Part shown: positions 2,814-27,810 of the stretch, piece by piece
Position numbering within the stretch: position 1 is the first letter of the stretch
Layout: each line of letters starts with the position of its first letter
Program-made: the position numbers and the translations under genes
Notes under the pieces: generated by a model
Databases searched by the model: none
Told to the model about the DNA's origin: nothing
Seen by the model: only the letters and a program-made list of their open reading frames with translations
Origin: Bdellovibrionota bacterium
Lineage (GTDB): Bacteria > Bdellovibrionota_C > UBA2361
Assembly: GCA_044352465.1 (NCBI GenBank)
Contig: JBILDU010000034.1
Coordinates: 1-28,766, forward strand
Direction of reading: 5' to 3'
DNA length: 28,766 nt

Positions 2814-3397
2814 GCATGATCGTTGAGTCGTTCGTCGACTGCGACGGTGAGGATCCGCACCTCGGGGTGGTCGGCGTGGAAGTTCTTAATACCTTCGGGG
2901 GCAGCGAGAAGGCTGACAAAGCGGATCGATTTCGGCTGGAGACTTTTAATTCTACTTACTGCAGCAGCCGCTGAGTTACCGGTAGCGAGCATCGGATCAA
3001 CGACGATGACGTCGCGGTCGGAGAGGTTCTCCGGCACTTTGAAATAATATTCGACCGGAACAAGGGTCTTCGGGTCGCGGTAGAGGCCGATATGTCCTAT
3101 CCGAGCTGAGGGGATGACGTCGATCATCCCGTCCAAGATGCCATTTCCAGCTCGGAGCACTGAGATAATGACGATCTTTTTACCTTCGATCATCGGGGCC
3201 TGCATGGTTGCAACCGGGGTCTCGATCTCAACGTGATGGAGAGGGAGGTCTGCGGTCGCCTCATAAGCCAGGAATGCGCTGATCTCCCGAAGCAGTCGGC
3301 GGAAATCGCTCGAGGGGGTCTCTTTTTGGCGCATCAGGGTCAGTTTGTGTTGGACTAACGGGTGGCTGACCACGTGGACATTGGAGAAATGTTGCAT
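2759..3397 (-). CDS. upp: Uracil phosphoribosyltransferase (URC6 equivalent in this operon)
   Basis: [28 protein letters not shown]-binding [27 protein letters not shown]; start moved to ATG at 3397 (MQHFSN), which follows a GAGG RBS. Confidence 0.97.
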
Positions 3398-3410
3398 AAA
3401 AATCCTCAAT

Positions 3411-4661
3411 TTAAAAAACGGTACCGTCGCTGATGATAGAGAGGGGTGGGCCACCTCCGGGCCGACGCTCTTTGGCGACGACCCGCCCGGCGGTCCAGGT
3501 GCCGCCTTGAAGCACCCGGGCGAGGGGAAACTGCTCCGCAGTAAAGCCGAGCTTTTCTCGTACCCGCGCTGCTACCTCGTCGAGAAGGGCCACGGTGAGG
3601 GCGCGCCATTCAATAATCGCTTCGTGCGACGGGGGGAGGGGAACCGTCAAGAGCTGCGGGTCGCGCGGAACGATGACGCCCAGATCGACTAATAACCCAC
3701 CGTTTCGGTACTCAGCGAGTCCCGTGAGTTGATCCATCTGCGTGATCTGGACCCCCATCTCTTCGAGCGGCTCGAGGAGTGAGTAGGTGAGCCATTGTGA
3801 AAGTTTGTGGAAAGGGACGAGGTTTTCCTCAAGGGTTTGGCCACCGAGCTTCGCGTGGGGCCACGTATCTCCCAGGTTGGTGCCTTCAAGGGATAGTCGT
3901 GCCGGCCAGATCGGTCCAAGTCCGCGGAGGATCGATTTAAGAAGGTCGGGTGCAGCGATCTCGCGTTGTCCCTCCTGGATGAGCGTCGCGGCGAGCCCAC
4001 CCGGGCGAGCGGGCGCGGAACCAAAAAAGTGCGGTGCTCTTTCGAGTGCTTCGGCGAGGCTTTGGAGGAGTGCGAGCCGGCCCTCAAGTCCGAGGAGTGG
4101 GTTATACTCCGATACCTGGAACGCCTTGGCGAGTTCCTCATGCGAGAGTCGCCGCAGGCCCACGCTGTCCACCTGATACGGATTGCGTGGATCGGACGAC
4201 AATGCGCCTGACATAAAAAGATGGAAGCTCACGACCGCAAGCCCCTCAGAGCGACTGAAGGTCCCCCCTGTATTTGGCTCCACAAAATGCCAGGCATCTC
4301 CGGCTCCGGCATCGAGGAGAACGCTGACGATCGCGAGGTCGAGCTTTGCTCGAGCTCGGCCAAGCGGGGTGAAGGCTCGGAGCGCCTCGTTTAATGTCTC
4401 AGTGCGTTTCACTCCGCCCACATCAAAGTGCCGCCACCGGCTATGGTACGGGATCTTGAGGTCGGGATACTCCCGCTTCGTTACCTCGAGCACGAAGTCC
4501 GCTACAGCGCCGATCTTTCCATCGTCGACGGTCCAGTGATTCAGCTCGCCGCGACGCGCGAGGGCGAGCAGGGCGCCGCAGCGGTCACGCACCGCTTGAG
4601 CTGAGAGGAGATAGTCGATTCCAGTCGTGCGGGTACGAGGATCCGTTGATCGGTCACTCAT
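3411..4661 (-). CDS. URC4/urg3-family protein (DUF1688), uracil catabolism
   Basis: [65 protein letters not shown]-terminal SDGTVF; 8-nt overlap with the URC1-like gene. Confidence 0.92.
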
Positions 4662-5910
4662 GGAGACCCCGTCCTTTCGCCTTCGCGAGCTCAGCCTTGT
4701 CGGGAACGGTATCGGGAGCGAAGTAGCCCGCCGCTTTTTTTGCGTCCATTTCGACCCAGGCGTCTGGCGGAATGAGCTCAGCAGGGATCGAAACCCGCTC
4801 CCGAATCGATATGCCCGACTGCGTGACCGAATCGTACTTCATGTTGCTCATCGAGACGAATCGATCGATATGGGTGATGCCGAGCCAATGGAGCACATCG
4901 GGCATGAGCTCTTGGAAGCGCATGTCTTGAACGCCCGCGATACATTCGGTGCGCTCGAAATAACGCTCCGCTCGATCGCCACCCTCTTGGCGTTTGCGGG
5001 CATTATAGACTAAAAATTTGGTCACCTCGCCGAGCGCACGACCCTCTTTGCGATTATAGACGATGAGACCGGTGCCACCTTTTTGGGCGCTTTCGATGCA
5101 CACCTCAATTCCGTGAGCGAGATACGGACGGCAGGTGCAGATATCCGACCCAAACACATCGGATCCATTACACTCATCGTGTACCCGCACCGCAAGCGGG
5201 ACGGCGGGATCGTGGATCTTTGAGACATCGCCGAAGAAGTAGAGGGTCATTCCCCCGATCGGTGGCAAAAACACGGCGAGATCTGGTCGGGTAACAAGCT
5301 CTGGGAACATCCCACCGGTATGCTCAAAGAGGCCCCGCCGGAGCGCCGATTCGGTGACGCCGAATCGTTCGGCGATTCCGGGGAGGTACCATACCGGTTC
5401 GATAGCGGCTTTGGTGACGATGCAGTCCCCCCGCGCGGAGAGGGTCTGGCCGTCCGGTTTCAGTCGGCCCGCCTCGATCGCGGCGGTGAGCTCGGGCATG
5501 TTGATATGCGCCTTGGTCACAGCGATCGTGGGGCGAATGTCGTACCCCTTTTCGATGAGCTCTTTGTACGCCGAGCTAATCACTGCGCCGAACGGGTCGA
5601 GAGAGACGATCTTCTTGGGGTCTCCCCACGTCCCGTGGGGGCCAATAGGTACCACCGGAGCGGTGTTGGTGAGGTCAGCGCGGTGATCGGGGTCGAGGCT
5701 GCCTGCAGCGACCGCCAGGGCGCGATACACCGCATATGAGCCGGCGTGTGTGCCGATGCAGTTCCGGTGCGCTTGGTTGGTGACGGTCCCGATAATCGGT
5801 CCCCGGGTCGCTGGGTCGGCGGCACCCCACTGAATCGGAAAATAGGCCTGCCCCGCAGCGCCGGGGTGTGAGGTCAAGATGATGTGTTTGCTCTTTTGGT
5901 TACCGGTCAC
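4654..5910 (-). CDS. URC1/urg1-type GTP cyclohydrolase II-like protein
   Basis: N-terminal extension (HIILTSHP, RGPIIG, RNCIGTHAGSYAVYRALAVA) plus GCH-II core VRVHDECNGSDVFGSDICTCRPYL and RKEGRALGEVTK; likely start is GTG at 5910 after AAGGAG (418 aa) rather than the track's 5994. Confidence 0.92.
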   Translation of the reverse strand: MTGNQKSKHIILTSHPGAAGQAYFPIQWGAADPATRGPIIGTVTNQAHRNCIGTHAGSYAVYRALAVAAGSLDPDHRADLTNTAPVVPIGPHGTWGDPKKIVSLDPFGAVISSAYKELIEKGYDIRPTIAVTKAHINMPELTAAIEAGRLKPDGQTLSARGDCIVTKAAIEPVWYLPGIAERFGVTESALRRGLFEHTGGMFPELVTRPDLAVFLPPIGGMTLYFFGDVSKIHDPAVPLAVRVHDECNGSDVFGSDICTCRPYLAHGIEVCIESAQKGGTGLIVYNRKEGRALGEVTKFLVYNARKRQEGGDRAERYFERTECIAGVQDMRFQELMPDVLHWLGITHIDRFVSMSNMKYDSVTQSGISIRERVSIPAELIPPDAWVEMDAKKAAGYFAPDTVPDKAELAKAKGRGLHE

Positions 5911-5957
5911 GCCTCTTTTCTCCTTTAAAATAGCTGGTATTGATCCGTCAGAGGCTT

Positions 5958-7439
5958 TTAACTCATCCACGTGGCGTCTTTCTGTTCGCTCCATTTCGTC
6001 GTGATCTTCTTTTGATTCGACCAGAAATCGAGGGCGCCCTCCCCGGTGATATCGCCGTGTCCAAATTTCGACTCCTTGGTGCCGCCGAACGAGAACGGCT
6101 CGCGTGGCACCGGTACTCCGATGTTGATTCCCACCATCCCTGACGTTGCTGCGCTCGCGACGTGGTTGGCCACGTTACCCGAGGTGGTGAAGACGGATGT
6201 CGCGTTGCCGAAGGGACTACGGGACTCTTTCGCGAGTGCTTCGCTGAGCGACGAGAATCGCATGATGGTAAGCACCGGCCCGAATATCTCGGTTTCAACA
6301 CACGCCATCCCTTCACGGGCGTGATCAATCACGGTAGGCCCAAGCCAATATCCCCCCTCGTATCCGGGCGGGGGGGGAGCGGTGCGACCGTCAAGCCGCA
6401 GTATCGCACCCTCACTGGCTGCTGCGCCGATAATATTTGAGATTCGCGTGTGTGCGGTGCTGTCGATGATCGCTCCGAGACAGTCTCCGGGGATGAGGGC
6501 GCGCGCGCGCGCAACGATCTTTTCGATGAGACCGTCCACCTCGCCCACCGCCAGGAGGAGGCTTGCCGCCATACACCGTTGCCCTGCGCAGCCGGTAAAC
6601 GAATCAACGACCCCACGGACCGTGACATCCTCATCGGCATCCGGAACGAGGATGACGTGATTTTTTGCTCCACCGAGGCAGAGGGCGCGTTTGCCGAGGG
6701 ATGTGGCGCGGGTGTAGACCGCGCGGGCAACCGGGGTCGAGCCGACGAATCCGATCGCTTTAACGTGGGGATGATCGATCAGCGCCTCAACTGCTTCGCG
6801 GTCGCCGTTGACGACCGAGAATACGCCCGGGGGGAAGTCCGCATCGCGCATCGCTTCAGCGAGGTAAGACGCCGTGAGCGGAACTTTTTCAGAGGCTTTC
6901 AAAACGAAGGAGTTGCCGAGGGCGATGGCGATCGGAAACATCCACATCGGCACCATGCCGGGGAAGTTAAACGGCGCGATCCCCGCAACGACTCCGAGTG
7001 GTTCGCGGGCATAGTGGCAGGTGACACCCCGGCTTACCTCCATAAGCGCGCCGGAATCGAGATTTTGAAGGCTGAGGGCAAACTCAACCACTTCAATCCC
7101 TTTGAGTATTTCGGCCCGGCCTTCGGCTACAGTTTTGCCCGCCTCAGCAGCTGCCCGGTGAGCGAACTCATCGAGTCTTTGAAGGAGAATCGCCCGAAAG
7201 TTAAAAAGCCGTTGCGCACGTTCCTTCAGTGGCGTGGCGCGCCAGGCCGGAAATGCGGCGTGAGCTGTGTCAACAATTCGGCTGATATCGGCACCGTTCG
7301 ATAGCGCAACTTCGCCGATCTTGAGCCCGGTGTACGGTGACTCGACCGCCACATATCTCCCGGTTGAAGGGGGGAGAAACGCTCCACCGCTAAAATTATC
7401 ACAGCGGCGAAAAGAGGGGGTTTGAACCAGGGTAGCCAC
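5958..7439 (-). CDS. mmsA: CoA-acylating (methyl)malonate-semialdehyde dehydrogenase (MmsA/IolA family)
   Basis: PFNFPGMVPMWMFP, KASEKVP, GFVGST, LGGAKNH, catalytic AGQRCMA, EIFGPVL, GINIGVPVP, FSFGG; GTG start at 7439 (or TTG at 7442) after GGAGG. Confidence 0.93.
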   Translation of the reverse strand: MATLVQTPSFRRCDNFSGGAFLPPSTGRYVAVESPYTGLKIGEVALSNGADISRIVDTAHAAFPAWRATPLKERAQRLFNFRAILLQRLDEFAHRAAAEAGKTVAEGRAEILKGIEVVEFALSLQNLDSGALMEVSRGVTCHYAREPLGVVAGIAPFNFPGMVPMWMFPIAIALGNSFVLKASEKVPLTASYLAEAMRDADFPPGVFSVVNGDREAVEALIDHPHVKAIGFVGSTPVARAVYTRATSLGKRALCLGGAKNHVILVPDADEDVTVRGVVDSFTGCAGQRCMAASLLLAVGEVDGLIEKIVARARALIPGDCLGAIIDSTAHTRISNIIGAAASEGAILRLDGRTAPPPPGYEGGYWLGPTVIDHAREGMACVETEIFGPVLTIMRFSSLSEALAKESRSPFGNATSVFTTSGNVANHVASAATSGMVGINIGVPVPREPFSFGGTKESKFGHGDITGEGALDFWSNQKKITTKWSEQKDATWMS

Positions 7440-7597
7440 CAAAAAACCTCCGTAAGAGTGATTTTAAGATTCGCCGGGTCAGCGATTCGTTACGCTAAAA
7501 GAGGGCGGTCGGGGGAAACGTTAACCATCCCTACAAGCATAATGAGGGGCTTTTCGGGAGGGAAGAGAAATCGCGCGGGGCGAGCGTGGGAAATCAG

Positions 7598-9053: not shown

Positions 9054-10814
9054 TTAGCGGCTGTGAGCTGGGGGAACGCCGACCGCGAACGCGGCGTTGA
9101 TAAGTCCAACGTGCGAATAAGCTTGCGGGAAATTCCCCGATTGCTTGTAGCCTCGAGGTTCGATGTGCTCGGCGATAAGTCCGAGATGGTTGGCGCACCG
9201 ATCCATTTCGAGAAGCATACGGTGCGCTTCCTCTTGGTGCCCTAATCGAGCCAGCGCCTCGATAAGCCAATATGAGCAGATAACGAACGAACCCTGGGGA
9301 ATGCCGAAGTCATCGGCCCGGCGATATCGGTAGATATGGGGGGATTGAGGGTCTTCTCGGTTCACCGCGAGTGCCCGGTGGATGGCGCGGACGGTACTTT
9401 CGTTCAGCGCGCGATCAGGGTAGTGAAAGATCGGCAGCAAAAGAAGCGCCGCATCGAAACTCGGATCGTGCGGGCCGTTTCGAACTGTACCATCCACGAT
9501 TGCGGCGGAGATAACTTCGGTCGCCCGCTGCATCGCTCCTCTGATATCGTAGCGTACCTCGGTGAGGGAGCCCTGTTGTTGCGCTTCGGCTACACCGCGG
9601 AGTCCAGCCCAACTTGCCAACGCACTGAACGAGTGCACCTGCTGCATAGAGCGGAACTCCCACAGCCCAGCATCCTTGGCCCCGATCGCCTCTGCTGCTT
9701 TTCGGGAGAGAAACTCAACGAGGTCGATGAGCGTCGCCGAGCGAAATTCCCCATACCTCTCCGCGGAAAATATCGGTCCGAGCGAGAGGAGCATCTCCCC
9801 GTAGACGTCGTTTTGAACGTGCTCCCCGGCCTGATTATTTGAACGTACCGGTCGCGAGTCTCGAAAACCGCGCCACCCCAGATGCACCTCCTCTGGTAAG
9901 GGGAGGGTGTGGTTGGCTCGATAGACCGGATGCAGTTCTTTCGAGTCGGTAGCGATCTCGAGCAGAAAGCGAAGAAATTGACGTATCTCTTCGGTCTGTC
10001 CGAGTCGATCAAACGCCGCCAACACAAAAGCCGCATCGCGGAGCCAGCAAAATCGGTAATCCCAATTTCGTTCCCCCCCGAATATCTCGGGGAGGCTCGT
10101 CGTGGGTGCGGCCAGGATCGCACCGCTCTCTTCGATACAGTTCAATTTCAGGGCAAGTGCGGATCGAATCGCTTGAGTGGCATGCACTGCTGGTAGTTGC
10201 AGGTGCTGTACCCAGGCGTGCCATCCGAGTGAGGTGGCGCGGAGCGCCTCTTCGACATACTGCGCCACGTCGCCGATCTGCTCGCTCCCGTGCCCCAAAA
10301 CGAAGTACTCGGTTTGGGTGAGTGGATGCACCGCTTCACTCACCACCTCTTCGGGCGAGATCGTCGTTGTGAGCGCTGCCTCGCCGCCTCCGAATTCGTA
10401 GTGAATTGCGTGTGCACCGATGTACGGCCGAAGATACTCGCGCTCCCAACCAGCAACCGGTTTACACACAACACTCACCAGCGGAGCTCCCCGAATCGGC
10501 TCGAGACGGCGGCAAATCTGGCGTGGCCGGTAAGTTCTTCCGTCCTTGGCGAAGCGGGGAGAGAAGTCGGTGATCCGAAACGCCCCCTGAGCACTCTCTA
10601 CTTCGGTTTCAAGGATGTTCGTGTATTCGATGTAGCGCTGGCGGGTCACTGTAGGTTCGGAGGTGCCTAACGCAAAGTGGCCGCCGGCGGGATCAAGGAG
10701 ACGGCCGAAAAGTGGGGGGCTATCGGGGTTCGGAAAACACAGCCAGTCGAGACTGCCCGATATGTTGATGAGTGCAACGACCGAGCAGTTTCCGATGACG
10801 CCGTAGGGATACAT
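9054..10814 (-). CDS. Glycoside hydrolase family 15 (trehalase/glucoamylase-like)
   Basis: GVIGNC, DWLCFP, AAPTTSLPE, RNWDYRFCWLRDA, QNDVYGE, catalytic GLWEFR, GLIAEHI, GNFPQAYSHVGLI. Confidence 0.94.
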   Translation of the reverse strand: MYPYGVIGNCSVVALINISGSLDWLCFPNPDSPPLFGRLLDPAGGHFALGTSEPTVTRQRYIEYTNILETEVESAQGAFRITDFSPRFAKDGRTYRPRQICRRLEPIRGAPLVSVVCKPVAGWEREYLRPYIGAHAIHYEFGGGEAALTTTISPEEVVSEAVHPLTQTEYFVLGHGSEQIGDVAQYVEEALRATSLGWHAWVQHLQLPAVHATQAIRSALALKLNCIEESGAILAAPTTSLPEIFGGERNWDYRFCWLRDAAFVLAAFDRLGQTEEIRQFLRFLLEIATDSKELHPVYRANHTLPLPEEVHLGWRGFRDSRPVRSNNQAGEHVQNDVYGEMLLSLGPIFSAERYGEFRSATLIDLVEFLSRKAAEAIGAKDAGLWEFRSMQQVHSFSALASWAGLRGVAEAQQQGSLTEVRYDIRGAMQRATEVISAAIVDGTVRNGPHDPSFDAALLLLPIFHYPDRALNESTVRAIHRALAVNREDPQSPHIYRYRRADDFGIPQGSFVICSYWLIEALARLGHQEEAHRMLLEMDRCANHLGLIAEHIEPRGYKQSGNFPQAYSHVGLINAAFAVGVPPAHSR

Positions 10815-10869
10815 GAAGAAACACTATCACGGCGGGTGAGTGCACGATGTGCGCCCTATCATCGCGAGA

Positions 10870-13035
10870 CTATTTTAGGATCGTCACATCAACGGTGCCG
10901 ATCCGATTCGTGACATGGGTGCTCACATCGTTGGCGATCCGGGAGAACATCAGGTCGAGCGAGCCCCGACCGACTTTCAGGCCGCGAACCGCCACCTCAT
11001 TAAGGAAGTGGGGGAGGAGTGGGCGATCAATAACGACGAGATTCCGTTCGGCGCACACGGTGATGCCGAGAGCGGCTTTAAGGAGCCCCAGCACCGTCGT
11101 CGCCGCCCAAGCTTGAGGGGAACAAGCCACGGGGTGCAGTGTGATCCCTTGCTCGGGGCGACGCTTGAAACCGCAGAAGAGCTCGGGCATCCGCGACAGA
11201 TGCACCGCATCAGCGACATCCATGAATGCGTGCAGGAGGTCTATCGCGCGTTCTTTCGAGCCATAGGCGGGAAGGCCGAGGGCGATGAGGGCGTTGTCGT
11301 GCGGCCAGACCGAGCCGTTATGGTAGGCCATCGGGTTATAGAGCCGTTCGCTGGAGGCTACGGTACGGATGCCCCAGCCGGAAAAAAGATCATCCTCAAA
11401 GAGGGTCGCCGCAACCCGGGCCCCACGGGTGGGCTCGGCGATCGCAGTAAAAAGGGTGTGCCCGGCATTCGATGTGCGGACCGCGCATGGCCGCTTAGCG
11501 CCGTCGAGCGCAAGGGCGTAGGTCCCGATCTCCTCGCACCAAAAAGCGGCATTGAAGCGGCGCTTCAGGTCCTCCGCTGCGGTACGAAGTTGCGTGGCGC
11601 GTTCGTGATGCCCTAGCCTCTCCGCGAGGGTCGCGACCCCTATTTTCGCGGCGTAGACATATCCCTGAACCTCACACAATGCGATCGGAGGGAGGGCAAT
11701 GTGTCCGTTCGCGTGAAAGACCGAGTCGTGCGAGTCCTTCCAGCCTTGCTGAATGAGTCCACTCGGATTGTGCGAGGTGTACTCGTAGAATCCATCGCCA
11801 TCCGGATCGCCGTAGCGATCGATCCACTCCAACGCACGCTCGATGTTCGGCCACAATCCCTCGATCAGGGGTTGGTCGCCGGTGTGTTCAAAATATGCCG
11901 CAGCGAGCATGAGAAAGAGCGGGGTCGAGTCGATACTGCCGTAGTACCGTCCAAACGGGATCTCGTTCGTCGCAGCGAGTTCACCGTTACGCACCTCATG
12001 GAGGATCTTCCCCGGCTCTTCCTCACGGGTCGGATCGAGCGCCGTGCCTTGATGTGCAGCAAGGTAGCGCAAAACACCCCGTGCGAGCGACGGTGTGACC
12101 CATAACGCCATAAGTGCAGCGATAATCCCGTCGCGACCGAACGGTGCGCTGAACCACGGTATGCCCGCGAACGGAAAGGGGCCGTGGGGTGTCTCAACGG
12201 TAAGCATCCGCAGATCTTCGAGTGACTGGGCGAGCCATCGGTTAAAAGGCGTATCAGAGGTCTCAATTTCACATTCGGCGGCGCGAAATCGACGCACACA
12301 CTGGGGTGATTCAGAGAAGGCCTGTTCGTACGGAAGGAGCCTACCCGAGGATGTCCCGTCGAGGCATGCGGTTGAGATGAAGAGTGTTTGTGAGGCTTGA
12401 GGTGCGAGAACCAGCGAAAAGTCCAGGTGGTGGGAGGTGATCTCCGTTGGTTCGATCGAGGCAGTGATCTGTAGATGACGCAGGACTCCGTCGAGCCCCT
12501 CGTAGGGCAGGCGGATACCGCGGGGGACTACAACGTCAGCGAGGCGCATGCCTCTGCGCTCGCGCCGAAATCCCCGCACCTCGAAGATGTCAGCGAAATC
12601 GACACCGAATTTTATGATCAGATGAATTGCCGCGGGTGTGGTACCGAAGTTTGAGAGGGTGAGACGCTCGTAACACACCCCGTTCCAAAGAAATTTCGCC
12701 CGCAGGGTGTGCACCGTGCCGTGTCGCACGCGCGAGCCATTGGGTGCTTCCAGGTCTGGATTCGTTAGGTCGACCGAGAGGAGGCAGTTGTCATTGGTGA
12801 CGAGCGAATTGAGGAGGAGGGGGCGTTGATGGTTGAGAAGAAGCTCCCATTGAGAGAGATACCGGGTGCCGGTATGGAAGAGTCCCTGCTCCTTCAGTCC
12901 CAGCGGCTGAATATCGCCCCGTCGATCAAAGACGGCGAAGGTGTCGCCGTCTTTGAGAATAGCGCGACGATCATCGACGATTACCGATGTAGCCAGAACG
13001 TATACGCGATCCTCGAGATTAACGACCTCGCTCAT
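10870..13035 (-). CDS. Amylo-alpha-1,6-glucosidase family protein (bacterial GDE-type N-terminal domain plus (alpha/alpha)6 barrel)
   Basis: LKDGDTFAVFD, DFADIFEVRG, AGIPWFSAPFGRD, EEPGKILHE, YYGSIDSTPLF, QGWKDS, YHNGSVWPHDN, ACSPQAW. Confidence 0.94.
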   Translation of the reverse strand: MSEVVNLEDRVYVLATSVIVDDRRAILKDGDTFAVFDRRGDIQPLGLKEQGLFHTGTRYLSQWELLLNHQRPLLLNSLVTNDNCLLSVDLTNPDLEAPNGSRVRHGTVHTLRAKFLWNGVCYERLTLSNFGTTPAAIHLIIKFGVDFADIFEVRGFRRERRGMRLADVVVPRGIRLPYEGLDGVLRHLQITASIEPTEITSHHLDFSLVLAPQASQTLFISTACLDGTSSGRLLPYEQAFSESPQCVRRFRAAECEIETSDTPFNRWLAQSLEDLRMLTVETPHGPFPFAGIPWFSAPFGRDGIIAALMALWVTPSLARGVLRYLAAHQGTALDPTREEEPGKILHEVRNGELAATNEIPFGRYYGSIDSTPLFLMLAAAYFEHTGDQPLIEGLWPNIERALEWIDRYGDPDGDGFYEYTSHNPSGLIQQGWKDSHDSVFHANGHIALPPIALCEVQGYVYAAKIGVATLAERLGHHERATQLRTAAEDLKRRFNAAFWCEEIGTYALALDGAKRPCAVRTSNAGHTLFTAIAEPTRGARVAATLFEDDLFSGWGIRTVASSERLYNPMAYHNGSVWPHDNALIALGLPAYGSKERAIDLLHAFMDVADAVHLSRMPELFCGFKRRPEQGITLHPVACSPQAWAATTVLGLLKAALGITVCAERNLVVIDRPLLPHFLNEVAVRGLKVGRGSLDLMFSRIANDVSTHVTNRIGTVDVTILK

Positions 13036-14090
13036 CGGGCGATGATCCTCTTTGGAGCAGAGGCGTGAGAGTCGACGAGCTCGCTGTAGATGGTCAGATA
13101 GTCGTCCGCCATACGGGTCGCACTGAAGCGGCGTTCAAAGTACTGTCGGCACGTTCGGCGCTCAATCGCGCCGAGTTTGCTGAGCGCGGTGCACGCCTCC
13201 GCCACGTTGCTGACGATGAATCCGGTGGTCCCGTCAGCGAGCACCTCAGGCACCGAGCCCCCTGGATAAGCGATGACGGGGGTACCGCAGGCGAGCGCCT
13301 CGATCATGACGAGCCCGAAGGGCTCAGGCCAGTTGATCGGGAAGAGCAAGGCTCGGGCGTTGCCGAGGAACTCCTCCTTCTGGTCCTCCCCGATTTCGCC
13401 GATAAACTCGATCAGCGGATGCTTGAGGAGCGGGGCGACCTCAGTGCGGAAATAGACGTGGTCATCGTCCCCGATCTTCGCGGCGATTCGGAGGGGCATC
13501 CCTGCCGCAATGGCGATGGCGATCGCCTCCTCGATACCTTTCTCTGGGGAGATGCGTCCGAGGAAAGCGAGATAGCTTCCCGGAGCCTCACGAAAACGGA
13601 GAAGATCGAGGGGTAGTCCGTGGTAGACGGTGGGGTACCAGTTTGCATGGGGAATCGTGCGACGCTGGGCCTCTGATATAGCGACGAGCGGAGCGTCGCT
13701 AAACTCCCGGCACAAGAGGCTTAATGCACCGAAATCAAGTCGGCCGTGTAGAGTCGTGAGTGAGGGGGTTGAACACCTTCGGGCCAGGGGCAGATGGAGG
13801 GTATCGACATGAAAATGGATAATGTCGAAGTCTTTGGCTCGGCGCATGATGTTCTCAAACATCGTAATGAGATACGGATTTCGCTCAGGAAAGGAGTTAC
13901 TCAGTCGAAGCGATGCCGGAGCACCGGGGATGAGCTTCGCGTTGGTGATTGAGTCGCCGCTTGCAAAGAGAGTTACCTCATGACCGAGGCGGACGAGCTC
14001 CTCAGTAAGATACGAGACAACCCGTTCGGTTCCACCGTAGGTCTTTGGGGGGACGCTCTCATCAAGGGGGGATACTTGGGCGATACGCAT
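13032..14090 (-). CDS. Glycosyltransferase family 4 protein
   Basis: MRIAQVSPL..VPPKTYGGTERVV, GRISPEKG, WPEPFGLVMIEALACGTPV; start moved to ATG 14090; ATGA overlap with the glucosidase gene. Confidence 0.93.
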   Translation of the reverse strand: MRIAQVSPLDESVPPKTYGGTERVVSYLTEELVRLGHEVTLFASGDSITNAKLIPGAPASLRLSNSFPERNPYLITMFENIMRRAKDFDIIHFHVDTLHLPLARRCSTPSLTTLHGRLDFGALSLLCREFSDAPLVAISEAQRRTIPHANWYPTVYHGLPLDLLRFREAPGSYLAFLGRISPEKGIEEAIAIAIAAGMPLRIAAKIGDDDHVYFRTEVAPLLKHPLIEFIGEIGEDQKEEFLGNARALLFPINWPEPFGLVMIEALACGTPVIAYPGGSVPEVLADGTTGFIVSNVAEACTALSKLGAIERRTCRQYFERRFSATRMADDYLTIYSELVDSHASAPKRIIAR

Positions 14091-14186
14091 AGATTTTCCG
14101 CTCCTCCGTCGGGCGAAGGAACGTAACACCACCTCGCTTCCGGAGCGTAGGAGGGGGAACAGGTCGGCTTGCCGGTGTGAGCGGAG

Positions 14187-16226
14187 TTACTGCCGATTCG
14201 AGCGCGAAACCATTCGATAGGTGGTAGGAGCCCCGCTCAATACTCGACTGAAGCGAGAGGGGAGCGGCTCAATGATCCGATTATCGGTGGGGTCGTCAAA
14301 GCGATTCCCGGTATCCTCCCAAGCGCGTTTCGACTCCGGGCTGAGGGCGTTGATAGCTACCTCCGTCGCGGTGCAGTCGCGGCAGAGAAGATGTGCCCTA
14401 CTGAGGTTGAGTCTTGCCAAACTTGCCCCGGTAAGCTCGAGAGTTACGGCGCTTGCGGCGTCAGCGCTGATATCCGAGACGATAGTCTCCTTGGCGCTCT
14501 CGAGTGGATTTGAGATTCGGAGCGTGCATCCCCGAAATACAGAGTTCGTGAGCGATCCTCCTGAGGTGAGGCGAATATGGAGATCCTCGAGCCCCGCGAC
14601 CCGTAGATTGGCGATTTTCTCAACGGCAAAGACCGATTGGTTGGAGATGGTATAGTCGTGTCGCTCCCGCTCAACGTGAAGGAGGAGCTCCAGCGCTTGC
14701 TTGCCCGCTGCGGAATTGAGGTCGCCCCGGGATTCTTTCAAGAGATCGCGCACTGCGCCGACTGCTCGTAGCGCTTCGACAGTTGAGTCCGCCGAAAGGA
14801 CGAGGGATGGGGTCTCAGCGAACTCTTTCCCCGTATAACCCTTGCGGTTGAGTTTCACCACCGCTCGGCCGCATTCTATCTCGAGTTCGAGGGTGTTAAT
14901 CCGATATGGATCCGCCCCTTCTGAGCCGAACGTCATCGGTTCAAACGTGAATCTTTGAGCGAGTGTGCGTTCGACCGCGTCAAGAACCTCCCGTGGGGAA
15001 TTAAATATCCTTCGTGCGGAGTCGGTTGGATCGAGGAGTCCCGTCACGCTTCGGAGCGGTGCGGCCTCAACGAGGGGCTCGCCTCCAAGCTCGTGGAGTC
15101 GCGAGACGATCCACCGGGTCGAATCCGCGCTGGGGGGGGTCGTTGCGAATGCTTTCATGTCGCGCATAAGCGCGACGATCGTTCGGCGAAACTCCCCCTC
15201 CTCGCCGGGTTGAGGCTTGAGCTCGAATCGATACGATGCTCCATCTCCGAACGGTGATTGCAGAGTCAGCTGGCATGCTTCGCTCCCCGCTACTGCTCCC
15301 CATGCGTAATCGAAGCGAGCGCGTAAGCCTGAACGAAGTACGATGTCATGCGGGCGCAGAAGGTCCGGCAAGTTGGGGGGAGCGTCGGCGCGCAAAACCG
15401 ACGAGCGGGAGAGCTCCCGCACCTCGTAGGCAAGGTGATCCTTGGCGTCGACCAGTGCTCGCAAGATCTCCGGGTTGCCCATCTCCCTCGCAAGAAGGAT
15501 TTTTTGGCCGGGTGCTATATCGAACTGCTTGTCCTGCTGCAGTCGGGTGAGGGCTTCGTTGAGCGCGGCTAAGCTTGGATTTCCGGTAAGGGGTTGGTCC
15601 TCCAGCGGTGTGACGCAGGGTCGAACGAAGTGGGCTTTAAAATAATCGACGATGAGAGCCCGGGTCTCTTGGAGGAGCCCGACCTGTTTTTGGAGAACGA
15701 GATCGAGATCCTTTGCAACACGATGCTCGATCGCTAAAAGCCCCGAGCGCACGTAGTCGTGCTCCTGGTTTTCGAGAACGGTCTTCGTCAGGCTCGGCGA
15801 CTCGCGATGAAGGGCCCTCTCAAGTTCCCTGGCTTGGACTACCAGCGGTGCAAACTCTGTGGTGACACGAGCTCGCTCGTCCGACGGAAGGAGATCCAGA
15901 ACTTCGGAAGGTAGACCGTGAATTATCTCTGATGCGTGGTTACACGCTGCTGCATGCTGGGTTTTGAAGTTCGTGATGCTGCGGAGATCTTTGGCCTCGT
16001 CCAGGAACGATTTGATCGCATCAAGCCCCCCGAGCGCACGGTCGACCGCTGTGCTCAGTTGCTCTCCAAAGCCAGCCGCACTCCCCTGGGCGACCGCGGC
16101 GCTGAGCGAGGCGAGGTTCAGCCGCGCTGCCGCAAGATGGGGCGGCGTCGTGGTGTGAGGAGTGTTACTTTCTTGCTCTTCTCGTGGGGTGTGTACCGAT
16201 ATTTGTCTCGATGGTGTTGTCTCCAT
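14187..16226 (-). CDS. Hypothetical protein (about 679 aa), no recognisable family
   Basis: Long ORF filling the gap; ATG at 16226 preceded by AGGA; helical-looking N-terminal half, beta-strand-like C-terminal part. Confidence 0.75.
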   Translation of the reverse strand: METTPSRQISVHTPREEQESNTPHTTTPPHLAAARLNLASLSAAVAQGSAAGFGEQLSTAVDRALGGLDAIKSFLDEAKDLRSITNFKTQHAAACNHASEIIHGLPSEVLDLLPSDERARVTTEFAPLVVQARELERALHRESPSLTKTVLENQEHDYVRSGLLAIEHRVAKDLDLVLQKQVGLLQETRALIVDYFKAHFVRPCVTPLEDQPLTGNPSLAALNEALTRLQQDKQFDIAPGQKILLAREMGNPEILRALVDAKDHLAYEVRELSRSSVLRADAPPNLPDLLRPHDIVLRSGLRARFDYAWGAVAGSEACQLTLQSPFGDGASYRFELKPQPGEEGEFRRTIVALMRDMKAFATTPPSADSTRWIVSRLHELGGEPLVEAAPLRSVTGLLDPTDSARRIFNSPREVLDAVERTLAQRFTFEPMTFGSEGADPYRINTLELEIECGRAVVKLNRKGYTGKEFAETPSLVLSADSTVEALRAVGAVRDLLKESRGDLNSAAGKQALELLLHVERERHDYTISNQSVFAVEKIANLRVAGLEDLHIRLTSGGSLTNSVFRGCTLRISNPLESAKETIVSDISADAASAVTLELTGASLARLNLSRAHLLCRDCTATEVAINALSPESKRAWEDTGNRFDDPTDNRIIEPLPSRFSRVLSGAPTTYRMVSRSNRQ

Positions 16227-16413
16227 ACTTCCTAATCCCCCCACACTGAGTACAGTTCGACTCGCAAAGGTTATGGGAGTATTTTGAGGTAAAGACTCAT
16301 TGGAGCACTTGGTGGTGGAGGTCTGGTGCCAGAGTGGCGGGTGCAGCCTGCGGCTAAATATTTGAATCTATATGGTTTTGTGCCTTTTCGTTCGATGGCC
16401 GCCTAATTGACGC

Positions 16414-20434: not shown

Positions 20435-21364
20435 ATGGCTGAACCCAACAGCTCCACAGGAGCTTTCTTTCAAAGACTTATCGATTACGCCGGGCTTTTC
20501 CCCCCGGCAGCGCTCGGGGTGTCGGCGGCAGTGGATAATTATCGAGCGTACCTTCACTCTCCACATCGTTGGATGTTGGGTCGTTTTGTCGCGGCTACCT
20601 CCCATGTGACGGGGCTTGCACAGGAGCAGCTAGCGCTCTTTTCTCCGGAATCGCCGCTCGATATATCGCTCGTCTCTAAAGATCCTATCACCGACATCCC
20701 GAAGGTGATCGATAAGGTTCGAGGAGCGAGTGGGCAAGTCTCAATCGGTAGCCTCGAAGTGGCGCTCCCTGTTGGCGATGATTTCGAGGCGGCTCTGAGA
20801 CGGATAGAGCCCGTCGTCGCGTTGCTCGATCGACCGGAGAGGAAGATCCCACTTTTTTATGAGCTTGGCCCGGGAGAGAAGTGGGATCAAAGTCTCCCCC
20901 ATCTCCTCGATTCTCTTGCAGAGGGGCGAGGATATGGGCGGATGCTCGGGTTGAAGCTGCGGTGTGGGGGGCTTGAGCCCCAGCTTGTGCCCGCTCCTGA
21001 ACGGGTCGCCGAGGCGCTCGCCGGTGCGGCTGCTAGGGGGATACCCGTTAAGTTCACCGCTGGGCTTCACCATCCGTTTCGTCATGTCCAACCGAGTCCG
21101 TTCCCCCCGATGCACGGGTACTTTAATGTATTTTACGCGGCGCTCGTCGCCTATCTCAGGTGCCCTGCTAAGGAAGTCCTTGTCTCGATCGTGGCTGAGA
21201 TGGAGCGGTGCGAGCCTGTGGTCGATAGAAAAGGGATCGCGTGGCTTGGTAACGAGATTTTTGCTGATGAGATCGCTCGTGCTCGGGAGCAGTTTGCGCT
21301 CTCTTTCGGGAGCTGTAGCTTTGTTGAGCCGATCGACGATGCGCAAGAACTGGGTTGGCTATAG
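20435..21364 (+). CDS. Conserved hypothetical protein (enzyme-like, probable alpha/beta barrel) directly upstream of fahA
   Basis: LIDYAGLFPPA, KLRCGG, KFTAGLHHP, MHGYFNV, SFGSCSFVEP; ATG 20435; 12 nt before fahA. Confidence 0.85.
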   Translation: MAEPNSSTGAFFQRLIDYAGLFPPAALGVSAAVDNYRAYLHSPHRWMLGRFVAATSHVTGLAQEQLALFSPESPLDISLVSKDPITDIPKVIDKVRGASGQVSIGSLEVALPVGDDFEAALRRIEPVVALLDRPERKIPLFYELGPGEKWDQSLPHLLDSLAEGRGYGRMLGLKLRCGGLEPQLVPAPERVAEALAGAAARGIPVKFTAGLHHPFRHVQPSPFPPMHGYFNVFYAALVAYLRCPAKEVLVSIVAEMERCEPVVDRKGIAWLGNEIFADEIARAREQFALSFGSCSFVEPIDDAQELGWL

Positions 21365-21376
21365 GATCCGATAGGT

Positions 21377-22642
21377 ATGAAGATTTCTTTTCTCGATGTT
21401 CCGGCTGACTCTCCGTTTCCGATCCAAAATCTCCCCTACGGGGTTTTTTCGGTCGCAGGAGGTACACCTCGTATCGGTGTAGCGATTGGGGAGTGGATCC
21501 TCGATGTAACAACCCTTCAGGCGCGCGGTATTCTCGACGGGGATTATTTCGATGCACCGACCCTCAATCGTTTCATGAAAGCTGGGCGCGCGGAGTGGCG
21601 AAAAGCACGTGAAGCGGTGACCGAGATACTTTCGAAAGATACTCCGCGCCTTCGTGACGATGTGGTGCTTCGAGCTGAGGTGCTGATCCGGCAGCGAGAT
21701 GTCAGGATGCATCTTCCGGTTTCAGTTGGTGACTACACCGATTTTTATTCATCTCGAGAGCACGCCACGAATGTAGGGGCGATGTTTCGTGACCCGGCCA
21801 ACGCGCTCCTGCCCAACTGGCTCCATGTGCCGGTTGGCTACCACGGGCGGGCGAGCTCGGTCGTTATCTCGGGGACGCCGATTCGCCGTCCGTGTGGACA
21901 GACCAAAGCCGATGACAGAGAGCTCCCAAGCTTCGGCCCCTCACGACTGATGGATTTTGAACTTGAGCTCGGTTGTATCGTCGGGAAGGATAGCGAGCTT
22001 GGGGAGCCAATTCCGGTGGGCAAAGCCCATGAGTATATCTTCGGTATGGTGATCGTGAACGATTGGAGCGCCCGCGATATCCAGAAGTGGGAGTATGTCC
22101 CGCTGGGCCCTTTTCTGGGGAAAAACTTCGGTACCTCGATCTCCCCATGGGTTGTGCCGATGGAGGCGCTTGAACCGTTTCGGGTAGCGGGGCCGGAACA
22201 GTCGCCTGAGCCGCTGCCCTATCTGCAGGGCGCGACGGATCGGAGCTACGATATCGAGCTTGAGGTAGGTCTTAAGACCCCGACGATGAGTGCATACACG
22301 TCGATAGTGCAGGGGAATTTTCGGACGATGTATTGGAGTATCTCCCAGCAAATTGCCCACCACACGAGTAATGGTTGTAATCTCCGCGTAGGAGATTTGC
22401 TTGCATCCGGGACGATTAGTGGTCCGACACCGGAATCGTTCGGCTCGTTGCTTGAGCGGACGTGGAAGGGGACGAAGCCTCTTGTGCTTCCGAACGGGGA
22501 GACGCGGACGTTTCTCCGGGATGGAGACTCGGTCACGATGAGCGCAACGGCGCGGGGTGCAGGATATGCGATAGGCTTCGGTGAGGTTGAGGGGACGATC
22601 GTTCCAGCGATAATCGATCCCGCGCTCGTTGTGGAACGTTGA
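21377..22642 (+). CDS. fahA: Fumarylacetoacetase
   Basis: [81 protein letters not shown]. Confidence 0.97.
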
Positions 22643-22655
22643 GCAGGAGAGGTGT

Positions 22656-23729
22656 ATGGAAAATCCGCTTGGTATTAAGCGATTCGGGCCGGTGACGCTC
22701 TACGTTGAGAATGCATCCGGGGAAGCGGAGCGGCTGGCGAAGATGCTAGGGATGGATATTACATATGTTCCAGATGGTGCAGAGCCGATCTTTGGGATTG
22801 AGGCGAACGATACCCTCTTTATTCTCGATGGGAGCCGAAAGGCGACGGAGCTTGCAAGGAGATACGGCAACCATGTTGCAGAGATAGCACTTCGTGTTGA
22901 TGACAGCGCGGTAACGCTTGCGGGGGCGCAGCGGCGGACCACCGAGAAGAGTTGGCGGTGCGAGAAAACCGGGGTCGGCTACCTCCGCTTCCCTCACGAT
23001 GGTGACCTTTATCTTCGCTTCATGGAAGATGGTCAGGTTCCCTATCTCGGAATGAAGCCGAATCCGAATCTGAAAAAGTCCGACTCATTCGCTTTCCAGC
23101 GGATCGATCACATCGTCGTGAATACGCAGAAGATCCAGCCGGTGATCACGTTTCTTGCTGATGTTTTCGGGATGAAGAAAGTGAATGAGTTCACTATACG
23201 GGTCGAAAACGAAGATTTTATGGCTTCGCTCTATAGTGAGGTTATGGGGATTTACGGAAGCGAGCACCCGGTGCTCTTCCCGGTCAATGAGCCGCTGACA
23301 GGGGATGATGTTTCCCAGATTCCGGCGCAACTGCGGGAGGTGGGCCGAAGCCACGCGCAACATATTGCCCTTGCTACCGACAATATCATTGAGTCGATCC
23401 GGAATCTGCGTGGGAGGGGATTGGGGTTCCTCGAGTTCCGGACCGATGCTCACGCGAGTGAGTACTATAAAGAGGTTCCGAATCGGCTCGGAAAGATTAC
23501 TGTTGAGGAGGCGATGTCGACCCTACGAGCGCTCGGAATATTAGTCGATAAATGTGGTCAGGGTTATCTGCTTCAGCTATTCTCGAAGAGAATGTTTCCC
23601 GAGAAGAGCGTGCCGTTTATTGAGATTATCCAGCGCGAAAGCGATGTAATCGGATGTTTTGGAGATGGTAATTTTGCTGCACTCGCTGAGGCGCTCGAGC
23701 ACTCGATGCGCTCGGAGAGTCGAACGTAG
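22656..23729 (+). CDS. hppD: 4-hydroxyphenylpyruvate dioxygenase (divergent-looking)
   Basis: Fe triad motifs IDHIV, QHIAL, FIEIIQR; FPVNEP, SQI, YLLQLFS, FGDGNFAAL; ATG 22656 after GGAGAGG; adjacent to fahA. Confidence 0.87.
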   Translation: MENPLGIKRFGPVTLYVENASGEAERLAKMLGMDITYVPDGAEPIFGIEANDTLFILDGSRKATELARRYGNHVAEIALRVDDSAVTLAGAQRRTTEKSWRCEKTGVGYLRFPHDGDLYLRFMEDGQVPYLGMKPNPNLKKSDSFAFQRIDHIVVNTQKIQPVITFLADVFGMKKVNEFTIRVENEDFMASLYSEVMGIYGSEHPVLFPVNEPLTGDDVSQIPAQLREVGRSHAQHIALATDNIIESIRNLRGRGLGFLEFRTDAHASEYYKEVPNRLGKITVEEAMSTLRALGILVDKCGQGYLLQLFSKRMFPEKSVPFIEIIQRESDVIGCFGDGNFAALAEALEHSMRSESRT

Positions 23730-23809: not shown

Positions 23810-24832
23810 ATGAAAATGATGAGAACCGCTAAGTCGTTACTTTGTGGGCTTGGAGTCGTGGTGGGATTGTGCGGATGTAATTCCTCCGTGGTGAAAGATG
23901 CGGTCGACCTTATCGAAGGAGTTCCCCGTAAAGATATCGATACCTCCATTCTCGGAGTGAATGCATTCGCCAATGACTCACGTTTCGGTTCCCCAGCGGC
24001 GCAGTTCCTCGAAGTCCGAGATACGCTGCGACTTCGCTATGTGCGGATGCTCTTCAATTGGGATGACGGCGTTCAACCAGGTCCGGGAAGTCCACTCAAC
24101 TTGTCTTTCTACGACGATCTGATTGCAGCGTTGCCGAGCGGGGTAGATGCGCTGATCGTGCTGACCGGTGCCCCGAGTTGGATGGATGATCCGTCCAACT
24201 GGCGTGGGGGAAACCCGCGCGCGACGTTTGTCGATGAGTTTCTTAAGCCGGTTGTGGCTCGGTATGGGAGAAATGGCCGTATCCGTGGATTTCAGGTGTG
24301 GAATGAGCCGAATATGACCGCCAATCCGGATAACATTACGCTTGGGGTCGCCGTTGATGCAGCGGCTTATGTGGAGCTCTTGGCCCGGGCGCATGATGTT
24401 ATTCGAGAAGTGGCCCCTGGCAAGCTGATCGTCAGTGCTGCTACCACTGCTATTAATCAGAATTACTCGGAAACGCTCGACTATAACCGTGCGATGCGGG
24501 ATGCCGGGGCGCAGGAGTTCGTCGATGTCTGGGCGATCCATTACTACGGCCGACAGTTTGAAAATGTGCTTCGCTCCGGTGGAGTTCAGGACTTCCTCAA
24601 TGGATTGTCGCGGCCGATTTGGGTCACCGAATCGGGGGCTCAAGGAGTCAACCAGCAGCTTGCGTACGGGGAGCAGGTGTGGCCGTTCCTTGTTGATCAA
24701 ATCAATAACCTCGAGCGGATCTACATCTATCAGTTTACCGAAGCTACCCCCAGCGACGTCACCTACGGCTTGCGCAACACCTCGGCGGACCTGCCCGTCT
24801 CCGACCTCTACATCTCTCTGCGCGACCGCTGA
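23810..24832 (+). CDS. Putative lipoprotein glycoside hydrolase, clan GH-A (GH5/GH39-like)
   Basis: Signal peptide with lipobox-like LCGC; acid/base WNEPN and nucleophile IWVTESG motifs; AAGGAG RBS. Confidence 0.85.
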   Translation: MKMMRTAKSLLCGLGVVVGLCGCNSSVVKDAVDLIEGVPRKDIDTSILGVNAFANDSRFGSPAAQFLEVRDTLRLRYVRMLFNWDDGVQPGPGSPLNLSFYDDLIAALPSGVDALIVLTGAPSWMDDPSNWRGGNPRATFVDEFLKPVVARYGRNGRIRGFQVWNEPNMTANPDNITLGVAVDAAAYVELLARAHDVIREVAPGKLIVSAATTAINQNYSETLDYNRAMRDAGAQEFVDVWAIHYYGRQFENVLRSGGVQDFLNGLSRPIWVTESGAQGVNQQLAYGEQVWPFLVDQINNLERIYIYQFTEATPSDVTYGLRNTSADLPVSDLYISLRDR

Positions 24833-25192: not shown

Positions 25193-26188
25193 ATGGGAAG
25201 ACCACGTAAGCAAATACTTTCAAATGAAACATATGAGATCTGCATGCGAACCCGGCGGGGACTGCCCTTCGTCTGCACGTTCTACATGCAACTTATTCTC
25301 GAGGGTGTGTTAGCTCGGGTTCAGCGCAATATGAAAGTGGTGATTAACCATTTTCTGTGGATGGCGAACCATGCTCATATCATCGTTGAAGCTAAGGATG
25401 CTGAGGAGTGCACCCGATTCTACGGGGAGGTACAGAAGCAACTTACCGAGGCCCTGAAACGGCTGTTAGGGCGCAAGCATCTGTCGCTTTGGCGCAGTAA
25501 TGAGACATCGGTTCTTCATCTGGGTGATAAAGCGGCCGTGATGAAGCAAATAGCATATCTGTATGCAAACCCAGCACGAGCGAACCTTGTCGAGACTATT
25601 GATGACTATCCCGGGGTCTCCTCGTGGCGGGATTTCGCTGCTGCGACAGCTGATATCAGAGCCACCGTCTCAAAAAGCTGTCCTTGGATCCAAGCTCCGA
25701 TGATTCCGACCCTGCCGACCCGTTCGGTGAATTCTCGCCAAGATATGCGACTGACGGCCATGATGCGCGAAAGGAAGCGTCAGTCACACGACTTAGTGTT
25801 GCATCCGAATAGCTGGATGAAGAAGTACGGAATCGTCTCTTCAGAGGATGTTGCGGCAACGAATCGCTCTATCATGGAGATGGTGCGGGAGAACGAGAGG
25901 AGAGCGCGGATTCAGCGCCAAGTCGATGGGAAAAAAGTGATGGGGGCGAATAGGCTTCGGAGGCGGGAGCTGACGCTTGATTACGTTCCACGGAAGTTGA
26001 CGCGGCGGCTTTTCGTCTACGCGGAAGATAAACAGCTTCGAATCCGAATGATCGAGGCTTATCGCGCATTCTGCGAGGCTTGCCGACGATGTTACGAGCA
26101 GTGGAAGCGGGGCATCTTTGCGGTCGATTGGCCGCCTGGAGCGCTCAAGCCTCCTCAGCCGATTAACGCTAATTGGTTCGGGCCATAG
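25193..26188 (+). mobile_element. REP-associated tyrosine transposase (RAYT)-like HUH/Y1 transposase with a long C-terminal extension
   Basis: MGRPRK start, HUH motif MANHAHII, catalytic Tyr motif AYLYANPARANLV, DDYPGVSSW; no tnpB adjacent. Confidence 0.85.
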
Positions 26189-26360: not shown

Positions 26361-26526
26361 GCTATTCTCTTTTTAAGATAAGTAGAACTTGACTCTCTGA
26401 ACGTTTAATCATGTCGAGTTGAGACGTACTAGGTACTGGGTACTAGGCTATTCTCTTTTTAAGATAGGTAGAAATTGACTGTCTGAATGTTGAATCATGT
26501 TGAGTTGAGACGTACTAGGTACTGGG
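26361..26526. repeat. Two 80-bp direct repeats (26361-26440 and 26447-26526), each ending in GTACT(A/G)G heptamers
   Basis: Hand alignment gives 74/80 identity and period 86; three heptamers at 26426-26446, two at 26512-26525; copy 2 contains the hmgA stop codon. Confidence 0.93.
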
Positions 26527-27810
26527 GAATTTGCGTTCGAGGCCGCGCCAGCAGTCGAGGTAGTCGTCTTGGAGGGTTTCAAGCTGGGCGGCGTATTTGG
26601 TGAGCAGCTGCGGATAGCGGGTCTCGAACATAAACGCCATGGTGTCGGTGAGCTTTGAAGGCTTCAGTTCCACGGTACTGGCTTTTTCGTAGCCACTCGC
26701 ATCGGGGCCGTGAGGTAGCATCATATTGTGGAGGCTTATCCCACCTGGAACGAAACCGGTCTCTTTCGCGTCGTATCGGCCGCAGATGAGACCCATGAAT
26801 TCGCTCATCACGTTGCGGTGATACCACGGTGGGCGAAACGTATGCTCGGCGACGAGCCACCGCGGTGGAAAGATAACGAAGTCGACGTTTGCGGTGCCGG
26901 CTTCTCCACTTGGCGCGGTTAGTACTGTAAATATCGATGGATCGGGATGATCGAACAAGATAGCGCCGACGGGTGAGTAGGTGTTGAGGTCGTATTTGTA
27001 GGGCGCGTAATTGCCATGCCACGCAACCACGTCGAGAGGGGAGTGCCCGATCTCGGTCGTGTAAAATCGGCCGCACCATTTTACATGAAGACGGCACGGG
27101 GTCTCTTTATCTTCGAATGCTGCGACCGGAGTTTTGAAATCGCGCGGGTTGGCGAGGCAGTTGGCACCGATTGGTCCCCGCTCGGGTAAGGTAAACTTGG
27201 CACCGTAATTTTCACACAGGTACCCACGCGCCACTTGAGATCGAAGCTCAACCTTGAACATCATTCCACGAGGGATGACGCAGATCTCGCCGGGCTTCAG
27301 AGCGATCTTCCCCATCTCGGTGAAAAAGACGCATTCGCCCTCTTGGGGGACCAGGAGCATCTCGCCGTCTGCATTGAAAAAATAATCGTCGGTCATGGAC
27401 TCGTTCATCACGTACACGTGGGCAGCCATCCCGACCTGAGTTACACAGTCTCCCGCAAGGGTCATCGTCCGGATCCCGCCGATGAAATTAGTGCTCTCCG
27501 GGGGATAAGGAGTAGGGTTCCACCGTAATTGTCCAATCGGCAGTTCGTGCTCTTCTGAAGCAGGGGCGGTCTTCCAGTAGGGCAGATCTGCCTTTTTGAA
27601 GCGATTTGTGTGCCGTACACTCGGTCGAATTCGATAGAGCCAGGAGCGCTCATTCGTGCCTCGAGGGGCGGTGAACGGAGAGCCGGAGAGCTGCTCAGCG
27701 TAGAGGCCATAGGCACATTTTTGGGGGGAGTTTTGCCCTTGGGGGAGAGCCCCGGTCAGTGACTCGGTCTCGAAATCGTTGCCGAAGCCAGGCATATATT
27801 TGAGTCCCAT
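26515..27810 (-). CDS. hmgA: Homogentisate 1,2-dioxygenase
   Basis: [89 protein letters not shown]. Confidence 0.98.

Follow-up and report, generated by a model that had tools for sequence, protein, structure and literature searches.

A conserved TIM-barrel protein encoded beside fumarylacetoacetase is a candidate glutathione-independent maleylacetoacetate isomerase

The locus and an unannotated gene family

The gene considered here, which we call X, lies in a 28,766-nucleotide (nt) stretch of DNA from a Bdellovibrionota bacterium (positions 1 to 28,766 of contig JBILDU010000034.1, assembly GCA_044352465.1; the whole stretch is hereafter the window) and is a candidate for the isomerase step of tyrosine breakdown through homogentisate. 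X occupies 20435..21364 on the forward strand and has a stop-free translation of 309 amino acids (aa), a predicted TIM-barrel protein of an unannotated family that we propose as a putative glutathione-independent maleylacetoacetate isomerase. Its stop codon ends at 21364 and, after a 12-nt spacer (21365..21376), the ATG of fahA follows at 21377 on the same strand. The fahA gene (21377..22642) encodes a fumarylacetoacetase with both the N-terminal and the C-terminal domain (PF09298 and PF01557) and scores 588 bits against TIGR01266 (cut-off 375). Next on the forward strand comes a dioxygenase gene (22656..23729; PF00903, 29 bits) that we call hppD-like rather than a certified equivalog because its TIGR01263 score of 177 bits is below the cut-off of 277; from reading the translation, ATG 22656 is a likelier start than the listed TTG 22629. 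The homogentisate 1,2-dioxygenase gene hmgA lies 3 kb further on, on the reverse strand (26515..27810; PF20510 and PF04209; TIGR01015 707 bits, cut-off 511).

A sequence-only reading of this DNA had singled out X as a stand-in for a missing glutathione-dependent isomerase, MaiA, and most of its description of the locus is borne out. All the motifs that it quoted are present in the translation (DYAGLFPPA at residues 17–25, KLRCGG at 174–179, TAGLHHP at 208–214, HGYFN at 227–231, and SFGSCSFVEP at 290–299), and the 12 nt that it gave between X and fahA agree with the coordinates. It had also listed fahA, hmgA, and hppD; the first two are above their cut-offs, while the third has to be weakened to hppD-like. 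MaiA is indeed missing from the window, where a Pfam scan of the 22 larger open reading frames (ORFs) found no glutathione transferase (GST) domain, and the genome search that the reading had asked for gave no match to the maiA model TIGR01262 in the whole genome (3.13 Mb in 170 contigs, 94.9% complete). The ATG at 20435 agrees with the N-termini of relatives of X; a 37-codon N-terminal extension from TTG 20324 was considered and has no support among them. Predicted promoters and terminators between window positions 19600 and 24200 were no more numerous than in shuffled sequence.

The same genome fits the glutathione-lacking setting that had been suggested for the family. It contains no gshA of either type, and its only gshB match is an ATP-grasp protein at 70 bits (cut-off 299). 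We found no MDMPI_N domain anywhere in the genome and no second gene of the FAH family, so that the window fahA is the sole one. If maleylacetoacetate is isomerized enzymatically in this organism, the route is glutathione-free and X is the sole candidate in view.

X has no match to any Pfam or NCBIfam model, and a Pfam search with 32 aligned family members (X and 31 relatives) gave nothing real at E ≤ 10. X is nevertheless a real gene and not a chance ORF, because relatives reach E 1e-140 (65–68% identity) and, of 8,000 candidates scored, more than 6,620 match at E ≤ 1e-3, all of them unnamed or "hypothetical" and none with a Pfam domain. An exhaustive profile search returned 5,734 clusters (50% identity) at E ≤ 1e-3, of which 2,780 reach E ≤ 1e-30, and the matches in the ESM Atlas are "hypothetical protein" clusters only.

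Genomic neighborhood and phyletic distribution

X is tightly linked to fahA across distant lineages. Scanning one genome per species, we kept the best 80 of at least 597 X loci. Their record titles name Chloroflexota, Planctomycetota, Bacillota, Acidobacteriota, Verrucomicrobiota, Eremiobacterota, and Bacteroidota-type groups, as well as Calditrichota, Marinimicrobia, Krumholzibacteriia, Eisenbacteria, and one Poseidoniia archaeon. Searches with the window proteins (tblastn, within 8 kb) placed FahA at 74/80 of these loci, HmgA at 30/80, and HppD at 27/80, in line with the sequence-only reading, which had placed the family beside fahA and hmgA in other bacteria. The fahA gene is downstream of X and on the same strand in 74/74 cases, with an estimated gap of at most 150 nt in 61 and more than 300 nt in 8. 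Among the six loci with no fahA, three end within 250 nt of X (L009, L016, and L062), a fourth has 827 nt left (L072), and the remaining two (L017 and L038) are true exceptions that we weigh below; the genomes of L017, L072, and L009 carry fahA at another site. We also took an unbiased census of the genes around X: among 712 crude ORFs no more than 5 kb away, the only proteins to recur in more than 9 loci are X, FahA, HmgA, and HppD. In 13 loci the ORF caller used for that census preferred an antisense shadow ORF to X itself, and the tblastn counts are the more trustworthy. X and FahA also occur as one polypeptide: five of nine longer relatives are X–FahA fusions of 763–783 aa, with X as the N-terminal part in both sequences inspected. 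One fahA ORF of the set (L059:5233-6567) has an internal stop and may be a pseudogene or reflect a sequencing error.

A distant subfamily, X2, keeps to the pathway with a different hydrolase. X2 is found in many genomes of the window's own phylum (E 1e-17 to 1e-41 against the X profile, 22–27% identity). In five loci (L098–L102) it adjoins, by Pfam assignment, a type-2 fumarylacetoacetase of about 331 aa (PF18288 and PF01557); three of these loci also include HppD, and two of those three a short HmgA-like cupin. Judged by coordinates, X2 and the type-2 enzyme are adjacent in 14/17 genomes with an X-family gene but without type-1 fahA. With X2, the short HmgA-like cupin, HppD, and the type-2 fumarylacetoacetase, the pathway cluster exists in a second, complete form. 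Elsewhere in the same genus (L085–L089, L094, and L095), X2 stands by hppD or alone and type-1 fahA lies at another place; in one further genome (G066), X1, the close form of X, adjoins fahA. X is thus kept while the type of hydrolase is swapped, which favors a role in a pathway step over that of an accessory to one particular FahA. Two other loci (L096 and L097, in genomes G050 and G051) line up the genes for HppD, an X-like protein, a cupin of the cysteine-dioxygenase type (PF05995), and a PF03601 membrane protein; their fahA is on a separate contig. One X2 copy (G059:C102:3215-4120) has an internal TAA, again either a possible pseudogene or a sequencing error.

X and maiA are mutually exclusive among the genomes searched. 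Here fahA and maiA were counted when above the cut-off of their family models. In the window's own phylum (78 genomes at least 90% complete), 19 genomes have fahA, 34 an X-family gene, and 2 maiA; the corresponding numbers are 57, 27, and 0 in 151 genomes of the phylum of G088, and 7, 8, and 0 in 151 genomes of the phylum of G118. In the phylum of G129, for which maiA was the gene counted, 1 of 251 genomes has it. With all samples taken together, maiA is present in 0/117 X-bearing genomes and X in 0/3 maiA genomes, the anti-correlation for which phylogenetic profiling had been proposed. This total takes in the first 50 genomes of the 80-locus set, where maiA was above the cut-off in 0/50 and the top GST match reached 64 bits (cut-off 171).

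The individual samples show how closely X follows fahA. The 19 fahA genomes of the own phylum divide into 2 with maiA and no X and 17 with an X-family gene and no maiA. Both maiA genomes belong to one genus and have fahA, and the absence of X from them was confirmed with a broader profile built on X1 and X2. X1 itself is confined to fahA genomes in this phylum (5/5), adjacent to fahA in four and at a contig end in the fifth. Every one of the 27 X genomes in the G088 phylum also has fahA, as 57 genomes there do, and X is present in 0/94 genomes without it; X adjoins fahA in 18 of the 27, lies about 3 kb off in 5, and is elsewhere in 4. Without its center genome (n = 150), the sample around G118 has seven fahA genomes, and the same seven have X. 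The record of G118, which carries locus L038, is titled Alcaligenaceae; with maiA in 0/151 genomes of its phylum sample and fahA in 7, its taxonomic label or binning may be off. The single maiA genome of the G129 phylum (G509) has no X, and a 338-aa FAH-family ORF lies 2.8 kb from its maiA, so that MaiA, like X, can be encoded near a fumarylacetoacetase-type gene.

Predicted fold, proposed reaction, and rival explanations

An AlphaFold2 model of X, computed with the family alignment, has a mean predicted local distance difference test score (pLDDT) of 94.1 and a predicted template modeling (TM) score of 0.92, and shows eight beta-alpha units with an inserted helical and hairpin segment at residues 229–286. 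Foldseek returned only weak TIM-barrel matches to the model in the PDB (best E 7.7e-5, TM about 0.4). In a structural search against representatives, deoxyribose-phosphate aldolases (DERA) came out on top (Z 12.4–14.1, root-mean-square deviation 3.2–4.2 Å over 194–230 aligned residues), followed at Z 10–12 by unrelated and even designed TIM barrels; the list extends to 459 chains at Z ≥ 8. Searching PDB sequences with the profile brought up a single chance match (E 0.36). Homology to DERA (TIGR00126, PF01791) was examined and set aside, as hhalign against five DERA sequences gave a probability of 0.09% and X has no Pfam match. By its model, X is a TIM barrel without a demonstrable relative, and its likeness to known barrels is at the level of the fold.

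Thirty residues are invariant across the 32-sequence alignment (34–68% identical to X), and 16 of the positions in X stay invariant when X1 and X2 are taken together: D17, P23, P24, E108, E143, K174, R176, G179, K206, T208, G210, H212, P214, G228, G292, and C294. The polar ones fall on or just after predicted barrel strands, whose positions were taken from the DSSP string and so reflect secondary structure only. D17 and the invariant Y18 belong to strand 1, E108 to strand 4, E143 to strand 5, K174 and R176 to strand 6 (K174 on the strand itself by DSSP), K206, T208, and H212 to strand 7, and the invariant S293 together with C294 to strand 8. In the model, this placement is typical of TIM-barrel active sites. 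The catalytic residues suggested by the sequence-only reading fare unequally. C294, the Cys of FGSCS, is unchanged even in the distant X2 subfamily; H212 is the only His that stays invariant, H213 comes close, and X2 has lost H227 of HGYFN. The data thus show a conserved protein, modeled as a TIM barrel, in which a set of polar residues does not vary and whose gene is tightly linked to fahA, at times fused to it, and never found together with maiA in the genomes searched.

From its genomic context, we consider X to be probably a maleylacetoacetate cis–trans isomerase (the EC 5.2.1.2 reaction) that would act without glutathione and is unrelated to the GST-zeta enzymes MaiA and HmgC. The interpretation first put forward for this gene is thereby supported as the best available hypothesis. 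In the proposed sequence of events, HmgA would open the homogentisate ring to give maleylacetoacetate, X would convert the cis C2=C3 bond of that product to trans, and FahA, made from the gene that follows, would split the resulting fumarylacetoacetate into fumarate and acetoacetate. PMC11889516 goes no further than the HmgA–HmgC–HmgB scheme. As to chemistry, the invariant Cys294, just past the last barrel strand, could, in its thiolate form, attack C2 of the enone; the enolate might be held by K174, K206, and H212, or by a metal on D17, E108, and E143; rotation about C2–C3 would follow and then departure of the thiol, with R176 and the lysines gripping both carboxylates. A route through an iminium on K174 or K206 would be an alternative. 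We regard nucleophilic catalysis by Cys294, which is drawn from analogy, as the likeliest chemistry, though only as a tentative suggestion.

The analogy comes from known isomerases. MaiA, HmgC, and GSTZ1 are zeta-class glutathione transferases (EC 5.2.1.2, TIGR01262) with the same reaction and pathway place as those proposed for X, and no relation to it in sequence or fold: MaiA is a thioredoxin-like GST, whereas X is predicted to be an eight-stranded beta-alpha barrel. In MaiA, glutathione adds to the substrate as the nucleophile, and mice without GSTZ1 still isomerize maleylacetoacetate nonenzymatically with glutathione. X occurs in genomes without recognizable glutathione synthesis genes and therefore would have no glutathione dependence there. 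A possible model is maleate cis–trans isomerase of the Asp/Glu racemase superfamily, a cofactor-free enzyme that forms a covalent cysteine adduct on the maleyl double bond; X has one invariant Cys (C294), but the maleate enzyme has another fold and another substrate, and X has no Pfam match. Gram-positive bacteria offer a further precedent in thiol-dependent maleylpyruvate isomerases, namely the mycothiol-dependent enzyme MDMPI (PF11716) and DinB-type enzymes, which carry out non-GST maleyl cis–trans isomerization in glutathione-free organisms in the gentisate pathway and, given the lack of a Pfam match, are unrelated to X. A glutathione-independent maleylacetoacetate isomerase activity in Gram-positive bacteria was reportedly described in a 1985 Journal of Bacteriology note. 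Full-text literature searches found no gene named for such an enzyme, and the inspected matches to "glutathione-independent" enzymes concerned formaldehyde dehydrogenase instead. X would be a nonhomologous, glutathione-independent version of a known pathway step.

Several observations weigh against this assignment. No cis–trans isomerase of C=C bonds with a TIM-barrel fold is known to us. On the side of maiA, the mutual exclusion is thinly sampled, with three genomes from two lineages. Loci L017 and L038 have X without an adjoining fahA, an MFS gene being downstream and a MatE gene opposite, and fahA was found nowhere in the genome of L038 (nor in that of L016, one of the truncated loci). One genome with a type-2 FAH (G057, g11) has neither X nor maiA. 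On a larger scale, the X family does occur with hmgA and fahA and is present where maiA is missing, though 30/57 fahA genomes in the phylum of G088 have neither X (E ≤ 1e-8) nor maiA. In those genomes, therefore, the step may be absent, spontaneous, or done otherwise, and X is dispensable to FahA; X is not the sole answer where MaiA is missing. PMC4457819 cites an older report that some Bacillus hydrolyze maleylacetoacetate directly to maleate and acetoacetate; an isomerase is therefore not obligatory in every lineage.

We inspected the surroundings of fahA in 20 of the 30 genomes that have neither X nor maiA. In 5/20 (L112–L115 and L126, in genomes G213, G269, G240, G264, and G156), a PF01613 (Flavin_Reduct) protein of about 300 aa is encoded no more than about 0.6 kb from fahA, in three of them immediately downstream; four of these five loci have an hmgA-like gene, and two have an AMP-binding, acetoacetyl-CoA synthetase-like gene. 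One possibility is that the PF01613 protein is a third, unrelated solution for the isomerase step. An unrelated serine hydroxymethyltransferase (SHMT) gene stands beside fahA in 7/20, and nothing is conserved in the rest.

The genomes that do without X also bear on the strongest rival explanation, that X is another FahA-linked enzyme. Its substrate might be a FahA product, such as acetoacetate bound to a lysine as a Schiff base, or else a tautomer or by-product of maleylacetoacetate or fumarylacetoacetate. This explanation would suit a protein whose universal partner is fahA (74/80) and not hmgA (30/80 within 8 kb), and that 30/57 fahA genomes of one phylum can lack along with maiA. The structural comparison points the same way, as the nearest folds are class I aldolases and DERA has its lysines on strands 6 and 7, with the Schiff-base lysine on strand 6; by secondary structure, the invariant lysines of X also belong to these two strands. 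Yet such a role leaves the exclusion between X and maiA (0/117 in one direction, 3/3 in the other) unexplained, the profile similarity to DERA is nil, and acetoacetate is normally activated by CoA enzymes, whose genes are not conserved beside X. We consider this explanation unlikely. A hydrolase or lyase that attacks maleylacetoacetate and bypasses isomerization, which the sequence-only reading had left standing beside the isomerase, is more doubtful still. The hydrolysis reported for some Bacillus speaks for it, and the acidic invariant residues of X could bind a metal and water, yet it is disfavored because a full-length fumarylacetoacetase, sometimes fused to X, almost always accompanies it and would be redundant; nor is any maleate-handling gene conserved near X. 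That X is a noncatalytic partner, chaperone, or regulator of FahA would agree with the adjacency and the fusions but is most improbable, given that 16 residues (D, E, E, K, R, K, T, H, and C among them) stay invariant at 22–27% identity and sit at barrel strands in the pattern of an active site, and that X2 is far from any fahA in some genomes (L094).

Returning to the isomerase, a wider proposal can be put forward only speculatively: X may represent a new class of cofactor-free C=C cis–trans isomerases built on a TIM barrel and working through a covalent Cys294 adduct, possibly with help from a metal or a lysine. For prokaryotes of lineages that do not use glutathione, Bacillota, Planctomycetota, and marine archaea among them, it would then be the main way to complete the breakdown of tyrosine, with GST-zeta MaiA as the minority solution. 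The homogentisate pathway is textbook metabolism, yet its isomerase step is without a gene in glutathione-free organisms. For a Bacillus species, PMC4457819 says explicitly that no gene for an isomerase, nor one for a maleylacetoacetate hydrolase, can be identified beside hppD–fah–hmgA. If X is the isomerase, a gap in metabolic reconstruction would be closed across many phyla, thousands of "hypothetical proteins" would receive a name, and the TIM barrel would gain a new catalytic use.

Other genes of the window

Two ORFs on the forward strand lie between the fahA–hppD unit and hmgA. The first (23810-24832) encodes a GH5-like glycoside hydrolase, unrelated to the pathway, whose N-terminus is signal- or lipoprotein-like; the second (25193-26188) is a 331-aa ORF weakly similar to REP-associated tyrosine transposases (NF047646, 45.7 bits, below the cut-off of 80). 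On the reverse strand, a run of genes at 9054-16244 comprises GH15, glycogen-debranching-like, and GT4 genes together with a 685-aa ORF of no known family. Also on the reverse strand, at 2759-7442, consecutive genes encode uracil phosphoribosyltransferase, a DUF1688 protein, a GTP_CH_N and GTP cyclohydrolase II-like protein, and an aldehyde dehydrogenase, an arrangement that resembles the URC-type cluster for uracil breakdown. A fused trehalose-6-phosphate synthase/phosphatase is encoded on the forward strand at 498-2813.

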